DNA from: Escherichia coli O157:H7
GTDB taxonomy: Bacteria; Pseudomonadota; Gammaproteobacteria; Enterobacterales; Enterobacteriaceae
Assembly (NCBI RefSeq): GCF_013167455.1
Contig: NZ_CP038328.1
DNA length: 64,000 nt
Strand: one strand, 5' to 3'
Shown piece by piece: positions 2,848-61,176 of this stretch; position 1 is the stretch's first letter, and each line of letters opens with the position of its first letter. A program made the position numbers and the translations under genes. The notes beneath the pieces are model-generated. The model saw only the letters and a program-made list of their open reading frames with translations, was not told where the DNA came from and searched no databases.

Positions 2848-3017
2848 GATAGTGCTCCACAAAGGTTATATTTGTTGCTGTGGCGTCACTATAATTTGTT
2901 ATTTTATTATTTGCAAAAGGTAAAATATAAACTTCAATTATTAAAAATACGAATGGGAATAAAACGCATTACCGCTATTTCTTTAATCAGCGAAGATCCC
3001 CTCGCTGATTAAAATAT

Positions 3018-3341
3018 TTAGAGAAAGACAGGGAAGGCGGAATGATGGCACTGATATGACAAAGTGAATTCCGTATTCAAACATAAGGAACCCGCAAAAA
3101 GGCTACAGTTGCCTACTGGCTGACCAAAGGGGATCGCGTGGGTATAGCCTTCCTGTTGGCATGCGCGATCGGAGATCCCGCGACTGACATAACGATCGGT
3201 ATGGGCATGCTGCAAAAAAGCCTGGTCATAAACCAACCGTACAATACCTGTTGCCGCGTCAACTTCGCTCACATGGGCCTGGCGAGTAACCGTACACCCC
3301 GCCAGCGTTATTAATGAAAGAGTCAGAATCAGAAGTCTCAT
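3018..3341 (-). CDS. yecR: Lipoprotein YecR
   Basis: 107-aa ORF with lipoprotein signal peptide and lipobox (LITLAGC). Confidence 0.85.
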   Translation of the reverse strand: MRLLILTLSLITLAGCTVTRQAHVSEVDAATGIVRLVYDQAFLQHAHTDRYVSRGISDRACQQEGYTHAIPFGQPVGNCSLFAGSLCLNTEFTLSYQCHHSAFPVFL

Positions 3342-3504
3342 GGTCCAGCCAGAAGAGTAAGAGAAAGCACTATTTTACGCGTTACAGCGCTGCGACAATG
3401 GCCGGAAAAGACGCCTGGCAGGCGCTATTTCTTGCCATCTGTAGGTGTCAGAAATAGGGGGCTGTTCTTTGATTATCATTTTTATAACATTAAAGGGGTA
3501 TTTA

Positions 3505-3520
3505 TGTGATTTGTATCACA
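3505..3520. promoter_or_regulatory. CRP binding site (perfect TGTGA-N6-TCACA)
   Basis: tgtgatttgtatcaca upstream of azuC; a second near-consensus site tgtgatggttgtcata lies at 3535..3550. Confidence 0.6.
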
Positions 3521-3602
3521 TAAAGATTGATTTTTGTGATGGTTGTCATATTATAAGCGCAAAGACAATAACACCTGTATAACAAATGGTCGGAGTGCCG
3601 CG

Positions 3603-3689
3603 ATGAAACTGCGCAAAATCCTGAAAAGTATGTTCAATAACTATTGCAAGACGTTCAAAGACGTACCGCCAGGCAATATGTTCCGATAA
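3603..3689 (+). CDS. azuC: Small membrane-associated protein AzuC (28 aa)
   Basis: ATG..TAA encoding MKLRKILKSMFNNYCKTFKDVPPGNMFR, followed directly by an intrinsic terminator; too short for the 60-aa ORF track. Confidence 0.8.
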   Translation: MKLRKILKSMFNNYCKTFKDVPPGNMFR

Positions 3690-3690
3690 C

Positions 3691-3717
3691 AAAAAACCTG
3701 CTCCGGCAGGTTTTTTT
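3691..3717 (+). terminator. Rho-independent terminator after azuC
   Basis: aaaaaacctgctccggcaggttttttt: GC stem with 7-T run. Confidence 0.7.
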
Positions 3718-3803
3718 GTGTCCTGATGAGGGTGGATGTGACTATCGTTGAAGATGTGAAGCCGCTACTATAACGGCTTTCAAAATGCTATCAGGAGTTT
3801 ACG

Positions 3804-8022: not shown

Positions 8023-11375
<3,353 letters not shown>

Positions 11376-17951: not shown

Positions 17952-17979
17952 TTCTCCTGATTTCCTCAATTGAAATGAA

Positions 17980-18008
17980 CCCGATGATCTGCGCATCGGG
18001 TTTTATTT
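17980..18008 (+). terminator. Intrinsic terminator after cheW
   Basis: cccgatg-atctgcg-catcggg stem-loop followed by tttt. Confidence 0.6.
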
Positions 18009-18035
18009 CAATTTCGCGGCGGGTGGCATCAGCAA

Positions 18036-18062
18036 TAAAGTTTCCCCCTTCCTTGCCGATAA
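18036..18062 (+). promoter_or_regulatory. Sigma-28 (FliA) promoter of the tar-tap-cheRBYZ operon
   Basis: TAAAGTTT-N11-GCCGATAA is a perfect sigma-28 consensus about 30 bp upstream of the tar start. Confidence 0.8.
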
Positions 18063-18093: not shown

Positions 18094-19755
18094 ATGATTA
18101 ACCGTATCCGCGTAGTCACGCTGTTGGTAATGGTGCTGGGGGTATTCGCACTGTTACAGCTTATTTCCGGCAGTCTGTTTTTTTCTTCCCTTCACCATAG
18201 CCAGAAGAGCTTTGTGGTTTCCAATCAATTACGAGAACAGCAGGGCGAGCTGACGTCAACCTGGGATTTAATGCTGCAAACGCGCATTAACCTGAGTCGT
18301 TCAGCGGTGCGAATGATGATGGATTCCTCCAATCAACAAAGTAATGCCAAAGTTGAATTGCTCGATAGCGCCAGGAAAACATTGGCCCAGGCCGCGACTC
18401 ATTATAAAAAATTCAAAAGCATGGCACCGTTACCTGAAATGGTCGCTACCAGTCGTAATATTGATGAAAAATATAAAAACTATTACACAGCGTTAACTGA
18501 ACTGATTGATTATCTTGATTATGGCAATACTGGAGCTTATTTCGCTCAGCCAACCCAGGGAATGCAAAATGCAATGGGCGAAGCGTTTGCTCAGTACGCC
18601 CTCAGCAGTGAAAAACTGTATCGCGATATCGTCACTGACAACGCAGATGATTACCGATTTGCCCAGTGGCAACTGGCGGTTATCGCGCTGGTGGTGGTAT
18701 TGATTCTGCTGGTGGCGTGGTATGGCATTCGCCGTATGTTGCTTACACCGCTGGCAAAAATTATTGCTCACATTCGCGAAATCGCCGGTGGTAACCTGGC
18801 GAATACCCTGACCATTGACGGGCGCAGTGAAATGGGCGACCTGGCGCAGAGCGTTTCACATATGCAACGCTCTTTGACTGACACCGTCACTCATGTCCGC
18901 GAAGGTTCAGATGCCATCTATGCCGGTACCCGTGAAATTGCGGCGGGCAACACCGATCTTTCCTCCCGTACGGAACAGCAGGCATCCGCGCTGGAAGAAA
19001 CTGCCGCCAGCATGGAGCAGCTCACCGCGACAGTGAAGCAAAACGCCGATAACGCCCGCCAGGCCTCGCAACTGGCGCAAAGTGCCTCCGACACCGCCCA
19101 GCACGGCGGCAAAGTGGTGGATGGCGTAGTGAAAACGATGCATGAGATCGCCGATAGTTCGAAGAAAATCGCCGACATTATCAGCGTAATCGACGGTATT
19201 GCCTTCCAGACTAATATCCTCGCGCTGAATGCCGCTGTTGAAGCCGCGCGAGCGGGTGAACAGGGCCGTGGTTTTGCCGTGGTGGCGGGCGAAGTGCGTA
19301 ATCTTGCCAGTCGTAGCGCCCAGGCGGCAAAAGAGATCAAAGCTCTCATTGAAGACTCCGTCTCGCGCGTTGATACCGGTTCGGTGCTGGTCGAAAGCGC
19401 CGGGGAAACAATGAACAATATCGTCGATGCTGTCACTCGCGTGACTGACATTATGGGCGAGATTGCATCGGCATCGGATGAACAGAGCCGTGGCATTGAT
19501 CAAGTCGCATTGGCGGTTTCGGAAATGGATCACGTCACGCAACAGAACGCATCGCTGGTGCAGGAATCAGCTGCCGCTGCAGCTGCGCTGGAAGAACAGG
19601 CTAGTCGTTTAACGCAAGCGGTTTCCGCGTTTCGTCTGGCAGCCAGCCCACTCACCAATAAACCGCAAACACCATCCCGTCCTGCCAGTGAGCAACCACC
19701 GGCACAGCCACGACTGCGAATTGCTGAACAAGATCCAAACTGGGAAACATTTTGA
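18094..19755 (+). CDS. tar: Methyl-accepting chemotaxis protein II (aspartate/maltose chemoreceptor)
   Basis: 553-aa product from [14 protein letters not shown] signalling domain; C-terminal NWETF pentapeptide. Confidence 0.95.
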
Positions 19756-19800: not shown

Positions 19801-21402
19801 ATGTTTAATCGTATTCGAATTTCGACCACGCTGTTTTTAATTTTGATTCTCTGCGGGATCTTGCAGATTGGCAGTAACGGCATGTCTTTTTGGGCATTTC
19901 GCGACGATTTGCAACGACTGAATCAGGTCGAGCAGAGCAATCAGCAACGTGCGGCATTAGCGCAAACTCGGGCGGTAATGTTACAGGCCAGTACCACGCT
20001 GAACAAAGCAGGCACTCTGACAGCGCTTAGCTATCCGGCGGATGACATTAAAACGTTGATGACGACGGCGCGTGCCAGTCTGACGCAATCCACCACGCTG
20101 TTTAAAAGTTTTATGGCGATGACTGCGGGCAACGAGCACGTCAGGGCATTGCAAAAAGAGACGGAGAAAAGTTTTGCCCGCTGGCACAACGATCTCGAAC
20201 ATCAGGCGACCTGGCTTGAAAGTAATCAACTTTCGGATTTCCTCACTGCGCCGGTGCAGGGATCACAGAATGCGTTTGACGTTAACTTTGAGGCCTGGCA
20301 GCTGGAGATCATCCATGTGCTGGAAGCCGCCAGTGCGCAAAGCCAGCGTAACTATCAGATTTCGGCGCTGGTGTTTATCAGCATGATTATTGTTGCGGCG
20401 ATCTACATCAGCAGTGCGCTGTGGTGGACGCGCAAGATGATTGTTCAACCACTGGCCATTATCGGTAGCCATTTTGACAGCATTGCTGCGGGTAATCTGG
20501 CGCGTCCGATTGCGGTATATGGTCGTAATGAGATCACCGCCATTTTTGCCAGCCTGAAGACCATGCAGCAGGCTTTGCGTGGGACGGTAAGTGATGTGCG
20601 TAAGGGAAGCCAGGAGATGCACATTGGTATCGCGGAGATTGTCGCAGGCAATAACGATCTCTCAAGTCGTACCGAACAGCAGGCGGCATCGCTGGCACAA
20701 ACGGCCGCCAGTATGGAGCAATTAACCGCCACGGTAGGGCAAAACGCCGATAACGCACGACAGGCGTCGGAACTTGCAAAAAATGCCGCGACAACGGCGC
20801 AGGCGGGCGGTGTTCAGGTCAGTACCATGACTCACACCATGCAGGAGATCGCCACCAGCTCGCAAAAAATTGGCGACATTATCAGCGTTATCGACGGAAT
20901 TGCTTTCCAGACCAATATTCTGGCCCTGAATGCGGCAGTAGAAGCGGCTCGCGCCGGAGAGCAGGGGCGTGGTTTTGCGGTAGTGGCAGGAGAAGTGCGC
21001 AATCTTGCCAGCCGAAGCGCCCAGGCGGCAAAAGAGATCAAAGGGCTGATCGAAGAGTCAGTCAATCGTGTCCAGCAGGGTTCGAAACTGGTGAATAACG
21101 CCGCCGCGACCATGACCGATATTGTCAGTTCGGTGACCCGCGTGAACGACATTATGGGAGAAATTGCTTCGGCCTCGGAAGAACAACGGCGGGGGATTGA
21201 GCAGGTTGCGCAGGCTGTCAGCCAGATGGATCAGGTGACACAGCAGAACGCCTCGCTGGTAGAAGAAGCGGCGGTGGCAACGGAACAACTGGCGAATCAG
21301 GCCGACCATCTTTCGTCGCGTGTGGCGGTATTTACCCTTGAAGAACATGAAGTAGCACGACATGAGTCGGCGCAGTTACAAATTGCGCCAGTGGTATCCT
21401 GA
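19801..21402 (+). CDS. tap: Methyl-accepting chemotaxis protein IV (dipeptide chemoreceptor)
   Basis: 533-aa MCP paralog directly downstream of tar; lacks the NWETF tail. Confidence 0.95.
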   Translation: MFNRIRISTTLFLILILCGILQIGSNGMSFWAFRDDLQRLNQVEQSNQQRAALAQTRAVMLQASTTLNKAGTLTALSYPADDIKTLMTTARASLTQSTTLFKSFMAMTAGNEHVRALQKETEKSFARWHNDLEHQATWLESNQLSDFLTAPVQGSQNAFDVNFEAWQLEIIHVLEAASAQSQRNYQISALVFISMIIVAAIYISSALWWTRKMIVQPLAIIGSHFDSIAAGNLARPIAVYGRNEITAIFASLKTMQQALRGTVSDVRKGSQEMHIGIAEIVAGNNDLSSRTEQQAASLAQTAASMEQLTATVGQNADNARQASELAKNAATTAQAGGVQVSTMTHTMQEIATSSQKIGDIISVIDGIAFQTNILALNAAVEAARAGEQGRGFAVVAGEVRNLASRSAQAAKEIKGLIEESVNRVQQGSKLVNNAAATMTDIVSSVTRVNDIMGEIASASEEQRRGIEQVAQAVSQMDQVTQQNASLVEEAAVATEQLANQADHLSSRVAVFTLEEHEVARHESAQLQIAPVVS

Positions 21403-24401: not shown

Positions 24402-24466
24402 CCTGATGTGGCGTGACCACGTCATATCAGGCGGTCTGATAAGGCGATGACGCCGCATCCGACAAA
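24402..24466. repeat. REP-like palindromic elements downstream of cheZ
   Basis: gcctgatgtggcgtgaccacgtcatatcaggc palindrome and gacgccgcatccgaca REP core. Confidence 0.5.
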
Positions 24467-31509: not shown

Positions 31510-32345
<836 letters not shown>

Positions 32346-36207: not shown

Positions 36208-36258
36208 GACGTGAAAAGCGCCCGGAAACGGGCGCTGAGGTTATGCAAACATAAAGCT

Positions 36259-36357
36259 GCCTGATGCGCTATGCTTATCAGGCCTACATAGTCCCTGCAA
36301 TATATTGAATTAGCAAGGTTTTGTAGGCTGGATAAGGCGTTCACGCCGCATCCGGCA
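36259..36357. repeat. REP elements between torZ and cmoB
   Basis: gcctgatgcgctatgcttatcaggcctaca and gtaggctggataaggcgttcacgccgcatccggca. Confidence 0.6.
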
Positions 36358-36371
36358 GTAATACCAGACCT

Positions 36372-45425: not shown

Positions 45426-46439
<1,014 letters not shown>

Positions 46440-46676
46440 GTCGGATTGGTCGCTCGCACCGCATCCGACATTGGCAGTGTGCCTGATGCGACGCTATTCG
46501 CGTCTTATCAGGCATATACCAGAGATAGCGAACCGTAGGTCGGAAAAGGCGCTCGCGCCGCATCCGACATTGGCAGTGTGCCTGATGCGACGCTGTTCGC
46601 GTCTTACCAGGCCTACCAGAGATAGCGAACCGTAGGTCGGATAAGGCGCTCGCGCCGCATCCGACAAATGTGTTCA
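46440..46676. repeat. BIME/REP array: two direct ~100-bp repeat units plus a partial third
   Basis: Unit gctcgc(a/g)ccgcatccgacattggcagtgtgcctgatgcgacgct...cgtaggtcgga(a/t)aaggcg occurs at 46452 and 46551, with a partial copy at 46648. Confidence 0.7.
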
Positions 46677-46684
46677 GCGATAGA

Positions 46685-51751: not shown

Positions 51752-51789
51752 GTAGGCCGGATGTGGCGTTTTCGCCGCATCCGGCAACG
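51752..51789. repeat. REP element between lpxM and pykA
   Basis: gtaggccggatgtggcgttttcgccgcatccggcaacg. Confidence 0.6.
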
Positions 51790-60850: not shown

Positions 60851-61176
60851 TGGGTTCTGATAATTCGATTGACCGTTGGCGGATGCGGCGCGAGTGCCTT
60901 GTCCGCCCCAGAACGCACCACAATCGTAGGCCTGAGAAGACGCAACAGCGTCGCATCGGGCAATCAGCATCAAACAATGCCACTCAAAACGACAAACTAC
61001 TTTCACCTAAAATACCCTTATCACCTGATATACAGTAAATACCTTACCTGGCGCGAATTTCTTTGAATAACGGCCTACCGCCCCGCTTATTTGCGCATCT
61101 TTTGTCTCGATATACATTTTCTGACATCCTCATCCTCTATGCTACAGGCACTAAAAATGGTTATTGAGGAGCAAAT

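Follow-up and report, generated by a model that had tools for sequence, protein, structure and literature searches.

We are highly confident that the spacer between the ruvAB and znuCB genes of Escherichia coli O157:H7 is filled by a BIME-2 array, which derives from an ancestral Y-Z2-Y arrangement to which O157:H7 has added one 99-bp unit. The array lies in a stretch of DNA of 64,000 nucleotides (the window), where it takes up the 245-bp spacer of the convergent genes ruvB (+) and znuB (−). Neither the element nor its behaviour is new, and the K-12 locus is named in a published table of gyrase cleavage; the sole point specific to the window is the 5-REP allele of O157:H7, a minority form among E. 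coli.

Tandem Repeats Finder, applied to the whole 64-kb window, placed a period-99 tandem array at 46451-46666 (2.2 copies, 94% matches, score 379) and returned no second tandem array scoring above 50. In an ungapped repeat search the copies were spaced 99 and 97 nt apart, and at a lag of 99 nt 77 of 90 positions were identical, against 37.4 ± 1.8 (maximum 45) in 300 dinucleotide-preserving shuffles. A sequence-only reading of this DNA had described two direct repeats of about 100 bp with a partial third, and had named the lack of a period of about 100 bp as the observation that would speak against it; the repeat searches found the direct repeat at period 99. Unit 1 spans 46439-46537 (99 nt) and unit 2 spans 46538-46634 (97 nt), and the partial third unit is the last Y REP alone (46635-46668, 34 nt). 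The earlier coordinates, 46440-46676, were correct to within about 8 nt. To call the units nearly identical was generous, as the two full units differ at 9 positions and by a 2-nt indel (about 89% identity), with most of the mismatches in the degenerate first REP adjoining ruvB. The array is also the largest repeat of the window only among tandem repeats. The longest repeat overall, of about 500 bp, joins 18925-19434 and 20626-21135 (73-77% identity, 1701 bp apart) and is the common signalling domain of tar and tap, two adjacent chemoreceptor paralogs.

The placement between ruvB and znuB was confirmed by the open reading frames and by a near-identical annotated record, that of O157:H7 strain Xuzhou21, which shows 5 differences from the window over 64,000 positions and carries the same gene names. 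One of the differences concerns araH, annotated as a pseudogene in the Xuzhou21 record: position 8283 differs and the araH frame of the window is intact, so we rejected the pseudogene as a feature of the window. The features of the locus are as follows.

45429..46439, + strand: ruvB CDS, from the ORF and the annotation of the near-identical record; stop TAA at 46437-46439
46436..46668, no strand: whole BIME-2 array, five alternating REPs in two full Y-S-Z2-linker units and a terminal Y
46436..46472, consensus on − strand: REP a, Y-type, degenerate; 25/35 positions; GTAA for GTAG; −14.2 kcal/mol
46473..46479, no strand: head-to-head linker GGCAGTG, S-type by length; 7 nt
46480..46516, + strand: REP b, Z2-type; 32/37 positions; −25.1 kcal/mol; holds the TnpA(REP) type I motif TGCCTGAT
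46517..46534, no strand: tail-to-tail linker of unit 1, ..CCAGAGATAGCGAACC
46535..46571, − strand: REP c, Y-type; 29/35 positions; GTAG intact at 46535-46538
46572..46578, no strand: head-to-head linker GGCAGTG; 7 nt
46579..46616, + strand: REP d, Z2-type; 34/37 positions; CTAC intact
46617..46631, no strand: tail-to-tail linker CAGAGATAGCGAACC; 15 nt, from CTAC to GTAG
46632..46668, − strand: REP e, Y-type; 30/35 positions; GTAG at 46632-46635; stem end 18 nt from the znuB stop codon
46685..47470, − strand: znuB CDS, from the ORF and annotation; convergent with ruvB

The array thus reads Y(−), Z2(+), Y(−), Z2(+), Y(−), with five imperfect palindromes, two in each full unit; that each unit contains REP palindromes had been proposed. 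For typing, each REP was aligned to the canonical sequences of the three E. coli REP types as given in Durrant et al. 2024 (PMC11208160). Y was the best type for REPs a, c and e (25, 29 and 30 of 35 positions), and REPs b and d had Z2 alignment scores of 27-30, compared with 14-17 for Z1 or Y. REPs c, d and e have an intact GTAG/CTAC foot. At the foot of REP a the tetranucleotide is GTAA, coinciding with the ruvB stop, and the CTAC tail tetranucleotide of REP b is broken by a 2-nt insertion that yields CATATAC.

In the definition of Ton-Hoang 2012, BIME-2s combine z2 with y REPs, have a short S linker and occur in tandem, with strains differing in the number of copies, and BIME-1s consist of z1 and y REPs in a single copy with a long L linker that often holds an IHF site. 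The array combines Y and Z2 REPs in alternating orientation with 7-nt S linkers and has no L linker; it is tandem (2.2 copies here), and its REP number (3, 5 or 7) varies with the strain. It is also extragenic, bounded by the stop codons of ruvB (46439) and znuB (46685), and its only overlap with a gene is the GTAA of REP a on the ruvB stop codon. The earlier identification of REP/BIME DNA therefore holds under a narrower name, BIME-2 being more exact because the linkers are of 7 nt and 15 nt and carry no IHF-like site.

The orthologous K-12 element is listed in Table DS3 of Sutormin 2018 as 'BIMEs2 1947056-1947182, 126 bp, znuB>-<ruvB', with two gyrase cleavage sites under ciprofloxacin, two under rifampicin plus ciprofloxacin and two under oxolinic acid, and with none under microcin B17. 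Cleavage was commoner in y than in z2 REPs and was seen in only a subset of BIME-2s, and BIME-2s were transcription-independent gyrase sites whose signal rose when transcription was blocked (Sutormin 2018). By extension from this 3-REP ortholog, the O157:H7 array would serve at the level of DNA as a transcription-independent site of gyrase binding and cleavage. The sequence-only reading had spoken of binding by gyrase and IHF; the mapped cleavage of the K-12 ortholog supports the gyrase half, and the IHF half falls with the lack of an L linker and of an IHF-like site.

The locus was found in 5,425 of 5,426 complete E. coli genomes. To estimate allele frequencies we twice drew a systematic sample of 59 chromosomes, in even steps down the hit ranking, and the two samples agreed. 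Counts of genomes in which at least 80% of the query was covered (4,413 and 4,783) merge alleles and join BLAST pieces and are not allele counts; the IS1397 allele alone was counted exactly, by means of a junction query. Alleles of 3 REPs, as in K-12, made up about 71% of the sampled chromosomes, those of 5 REPs about 8% and those of 7 REPs about 8%, with a 216-bp allele holding a foreign insert at about 2-3% and IS-carrying alleles at about 10%. The variation in copy number that had been expected between strains is therefore present across E. coli genomes as alleles of 3, 5 and 7 REPs. Examples of alleles of the spacer are as follows.

K-12 MG1655: 146-bp spacer, Y-Z2-Y
The window and BL12: 245- and 243-bp spacers, 5 REPs
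O169:H41 F6326-C1 and HN68: 344- and 340-bp spacers, 7 REPs
ET245: 1117-bp spacer, 7 REPs and an IS1 adjoining znuB
E. coli H105: IS1397 insertion, locus 1007-2657, junction query 900-1220

The array draws REP-specific insertion sequences, as IS1397 and IS621 both occur at this locus in other strains. IS1397 sits in the loop of the Z2 REP (CGCTGTT / IS / TGTTCG), with an identical junction in 555 of 5,426 genomes (10.2%); work referred to within Ton-Hoang 2012 describes this element as inserting specifically into BIME REPs. The foreign insert of the 216-bp allele comes from IS621. In B2-type alleles it is a remnant of about 66-78 nt, fused to a Y REP, of the outermost part of that element's non-coding left end, on the bridge-RNA side. 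In E. coli 729_270514_x_12 (spacer positions 100-177), a stretch of 78 nt is 97% identical to the IS621 end, and the remnant is also present in H105. At two independent loci (IS621 copies 978-2270) its 59-nt core precedes the IS621 transposase gene by 134 nt, and this core occurs in 2,233 of 5,426 genomes, in up to 27 places per genome. The remnant in the spacer appears to be the leftover of an old insertion that has mostly been deleted. IS621 targets REPs by means of its bridge RNA (Durrant et al. 2024, PMC11208160). REP-specific insertion sequences are drawn to the loops and stems of the REPs at this locus, and the array is in this sense a genomic target. In ET245, at about 3000-3767, an IS1A lies between the last REP of the 7-REP array and the znuB stop, with duplicated CAGCGATAG on both sides. 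The spacer has thus seen at least five kinds of event: the gain of one unit, the gain of two units, insertion of IS1397, insertion and later decay of IS621, and insertion of IS1.

O157:H7 and BL12, both with 5 REPs, differ in the unit variants that make up their arrays. The unit nearest znuB has, in most alleles, a TGTT loop, as in K-12 and in other species, and the extra units on the ruvB side have TATT. These differences in unit variants and in the distribution of loops point to repeated, independent rearrangements, and a comparison of six allele sequences suggests that expansions add units on the ruvB side.

For the comparison among species we used one DNA pattern scan, anchored on the conserved C terminus of RuvB, which returned 44 species representatives of the Enterobacteriaceae. 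In nearly all 44, ruvB and znuB are convergent. A Y-Z2-Y core in a spacer of 134-148 bp is present in E. albertii, E. whittamii, three further Escherichia lineages and E. coli; as every Escherichia species sampled has this core, the 3-REP form is ancestral, and the forms with 5 and 7 REPs are derived within E. coli. In other genera the spacer, of 28 to 1107 bp, contains unrelated types of REP or none. The 713-bp spacer of Citrobacter amalonaticus AUH_CA_2023_1 contains ten REPs in the same orientation at a period of 68 bp, with one inverted REP at the end; here the locus has expanded independently in a genus other than Escherichia. The ruvB-znuB spacers of two further C. amalonaticus genomes measure 43 bp and 124 bp. 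An enterobacterial ruvB-znuB junction was also found in CACSKA010000003.1, a contig labelled Chryseobacterium sp. 18061, with a ZnuB 91% identical to that of E. coli; this contig is probably mislabelled or contaminated.

The O157:H7 array accordingly started as Y-Z2-Y and gained one 99-bp Y-Z2 unit on the ruvB side, most likely through unequal recombination or slippage between units or through strand exchange by TnpA(REP) (RAYT). Motifs that TnpA(REP) requires, as defined by Ton-Hoang 2012, are present in the array: GTAG at 46535 and 46632, the type I motif at 46480 and 46579, and the type II motif GGCCTACC at 46610. TnpA(REP) recombines BIMEs in vitro (Ton-Hoang 2012). Given these motifs, the gain of a unit could stem from TnpA(REP), or else from ordinary unequal recombination.

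These observations bear on the reading of the array as a selfish or neutral remnant, spread by RAYT/TnpA(REP) and tolerated, in which the 3/5/7 polymorphism has no phenotype and the effects on gyrase and RNA hairpins are incidental. We regard this as a serious possibility, though one we do not favour. Copy number and unit makeup differ freely among strains, insertions of the 1.3-kb IS1397 occur in about 10% of genomes with the flanking genes retained, other genera have unrelated REPs or none in spacers of 28 to 1107 bp, and the substrate motifs of an enzyme that recombines BIMEs in vitro are in place, all of which suits a neutral element. However, no Escherichia species sampled lacks the 3-REP core, gyrase cuts the K-12 element reproducibly in three drug treatments (Sutormin 2018), and genome-wide both members of a convergent gene pair tend to be more highly expressed when REPs lie between them (2026 preprint). 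The idea of a neutral remnant is compatible with the main explanation, that of a BIME-2 array enlarged by one unit, and fits alongside it.

Another part of the array, its first REP, meets the end of ruvB. The ruvB stop codon occupies the GTAG site of this REP, as TAG in E. albertii, E. whittamii and E. sp. E1V33 and as TAA in E. coli, and the foot of the first REP reads CCGTAAGTCGG, compared with CCGTAGGTCGG in units 2 and 3. Since the stop fills the GTAG position, the hairpin of REP a opens at the first base past the stop (46440), with 0 nt between them. Liang and Deutscher (Mol Cell 2015) reportedly found that REPs lying no more than about 15 nt from a stop codon cause ribosome stalling and trans-translation. 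The main role of the array could then be translational, with REP a stalling terminating ribosomes and cutting RuvB output through trans-translation. The position of the ruvB stop (46437-46439) inside the GTAG site with the stem starting at 46440, and the conservation of this arrangement across Escherichia species with either TAG or TAA, are in keeping with such a role, and the 2026 REP325 preprint lists regulation of translation as a REP role that is not excluded. We nevertheless consider it unlikely as the main role, because REP a forms the weakest of the five hairpins (−14.2 kcal/mol, z = −3.1), the hairpin on the znuB side lies 18 nt from the stop, beyond the reported range, and the tandem structure and variable copy number are left unexplained. 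More speculative still is the idea that the expansions, to 5 REPs in O157:H7 and 7 elsewhere, form a quantitative dial, in which more Y REPs would give a stronger gyrase site and a stronger two-way barrier while REP a throttles RuvB. If this were true, strains would differ heritably in the output of ruvAB (recombination repair) and znuCB (zinc uptake) with coding and promoter sequences unchanged.

At the level of RNA, hairpins of −14 to −25 kcal/mol are predicted for each of the five REPs on both strands, and the region folds far more stably than its shuffles (z = −5.3 for the + strand, −6.7 for the −). No intrinsic terminator, that is, a GC-rich hairpin followed by a U tract, was found in 46440-46684, the sole match lying at 46745-46722 within znuB, and no promoter-like site was found in the ruvB-znuB spacer. 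As the spacer has neither, we infer that both converging transcripts run into the stacked hairpins. By analogy with REP325, a 12-REP Y/Z2 array that is a partly Rho-dependent terminator and an mRNA stabiliser (2026 preprint), the hairpins would act as partial, Rho-assisted terminators for both converging mRNAs and would block 3'-exonucleases on both. The same preprint reports that REPs between convergent genes correlate genome-wide with raised expression of both genes, and that the effect of a REP on mRNA depends on context, half-lives not being uniformly lengthened. The stabilisation of upstream mRNA put forward in the sequence-only reading is thus a documented REP property that varies with context, and one the array may have. 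The preprint's Table S16 lists 78 REP-containing bidirectional terminators; within the part of the supplement covered here, ruvB is absent and znuB appears solely in a differential-expression table.

REPs c and d (46538-46613, +) match the Rfam model RF02564 (naRNA4) with 61.5 bits, against a gathering score of 59.5, and the other two units, with 51.2 and 37.5 bits, fall under that score. The naRNA4 model is one Y-Z2 BIME-2 unit of REP325, so the match tells of sequence family and not of function. We judge it very improbable that the units are genes for naRNA4-like RNAs that bridge REP cruciforms with HU and condense the chromosome: one unit does pass RF02564, but any BIME-2 unit fits this model and only one of the three units exceeds the threshold, the spacer has no promoter-like site, and in a 2026 study nucleoid volume was unchanged on deletion or overexpression of REP325/naRNA4 and REP-REP contacts were HU-independent.

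The IHF consensus WATCAANNNNTTR has no exact match in the whole window and no match with 0 or 1 mismatches in 46436-46684, and a BIME-1 at 36258-36358, used as a positive control, has two one-mismatch sites in its 33-nt linker. That the array is an IHF-binding BIME-1 or RIP-type element can be dismissed as barely credible. What speaks for it is the common description of REP arrays at large as binders of 'gyrase and IHF', which is not specific to this locus; the array itself has no Z1 REP and no L linker, is tandem rather than single-copy, lacks the consensus at up to one mismatch where the control has it, and is placed under BIME-2, not BIME-1, in Sutormin 2018. The IHF-carrying L linker belongs to BIME-1; the phrase 'gyrase and IHF' therefore merges two classes of BIME, and only its gyrase half applies to the array.

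The control element in the torZ-cmoB spacer is a classic BIME-1, made up of a Z1 REP, a 33-nt A/T-rich linker and a Y REP, and Rfam ES036 (CssrF) matches 36280-36322 (−) within it above the gathering score. Further REPs of the window are an inverted pair of a Y and a Z2-like REP after yebF (60876-60960, in the yebF-yebE spacer) and single Y REPs after cheZ (24433-24466, cheZ-flhB) and after lpxM (51755-51788, lpxM-pyk). Two other RNA families also matched above their gathering scores, namely MicL sRNA at 32037-32344 (+), within and after cutC (373.7 bits), and C0465 RNA at 17971-18046 (−), between cheW and tar (105.2 bits).

The literature on BIME-2 arrays goes back to the 1990s, so the value of the array as a discovery is small, and its worth is that of a clean annotation and a worked example, in which a single window separates BIME-2 (gyrase) from BIME-1 (IHF). 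The polymorphism of 3, 5 and 7 REPs is a simple lineage marker, the 5-REP allele of exactly this sequence being typical of O157:H7. If REP number tunes the expression of convergent genes, as the 2026 preprint proposes in general terms, the locus offers natural alleles on which this could be tested.

Among known systems, the REPINs and RAYT doublets of Pseudomonas and other bacteria are inverted pairs of REPs for which a Y1 HUH transposase is the presumed agent of mobility. The array resembles them in its GTAG/CTAC tetranucleotides and cleavage motifs; unlike them, it is known for local change in copy number alone, and the RAYT gene lies outside this window. The REP325/naRNA4 locus (yjdM-yjdN) likewise consists of alternating Y and Z2 REPs in tandem units, but it has 12 REPs and lies inside an operon between co-directional genes, whereas the array has 5 REPs and lies between convergent operons. 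The functional data, on termination and stabilisation, are those of REP325 only. With BIME-1 (RIP/RIB), such as the element at 36258-36358, the array has in common inverted REP palindromes, a Y REP and an extragenic position; BIME-1 differs in having Z1, a single copy and a long L linker with an IHF site, where the array has Z2, tandem copies and short linkers. The closest counterpart is the znuB>-<ruvB BIME-2 of K-12, which is the ortholog of the array, with the same locus, flanking genes, Y and Z2 REPs and linkers. The K-12 element has 3 REPs over 126 bp in a 146-bp spacer, and the O157:H7 allele has 5 REPs in a 245-bp spacer, one 99-bp Y-Z2 unit more. In that extra unit the loop is TATT and the tail CATATAC, where the ancestral sequences are TGTT and CTAC.
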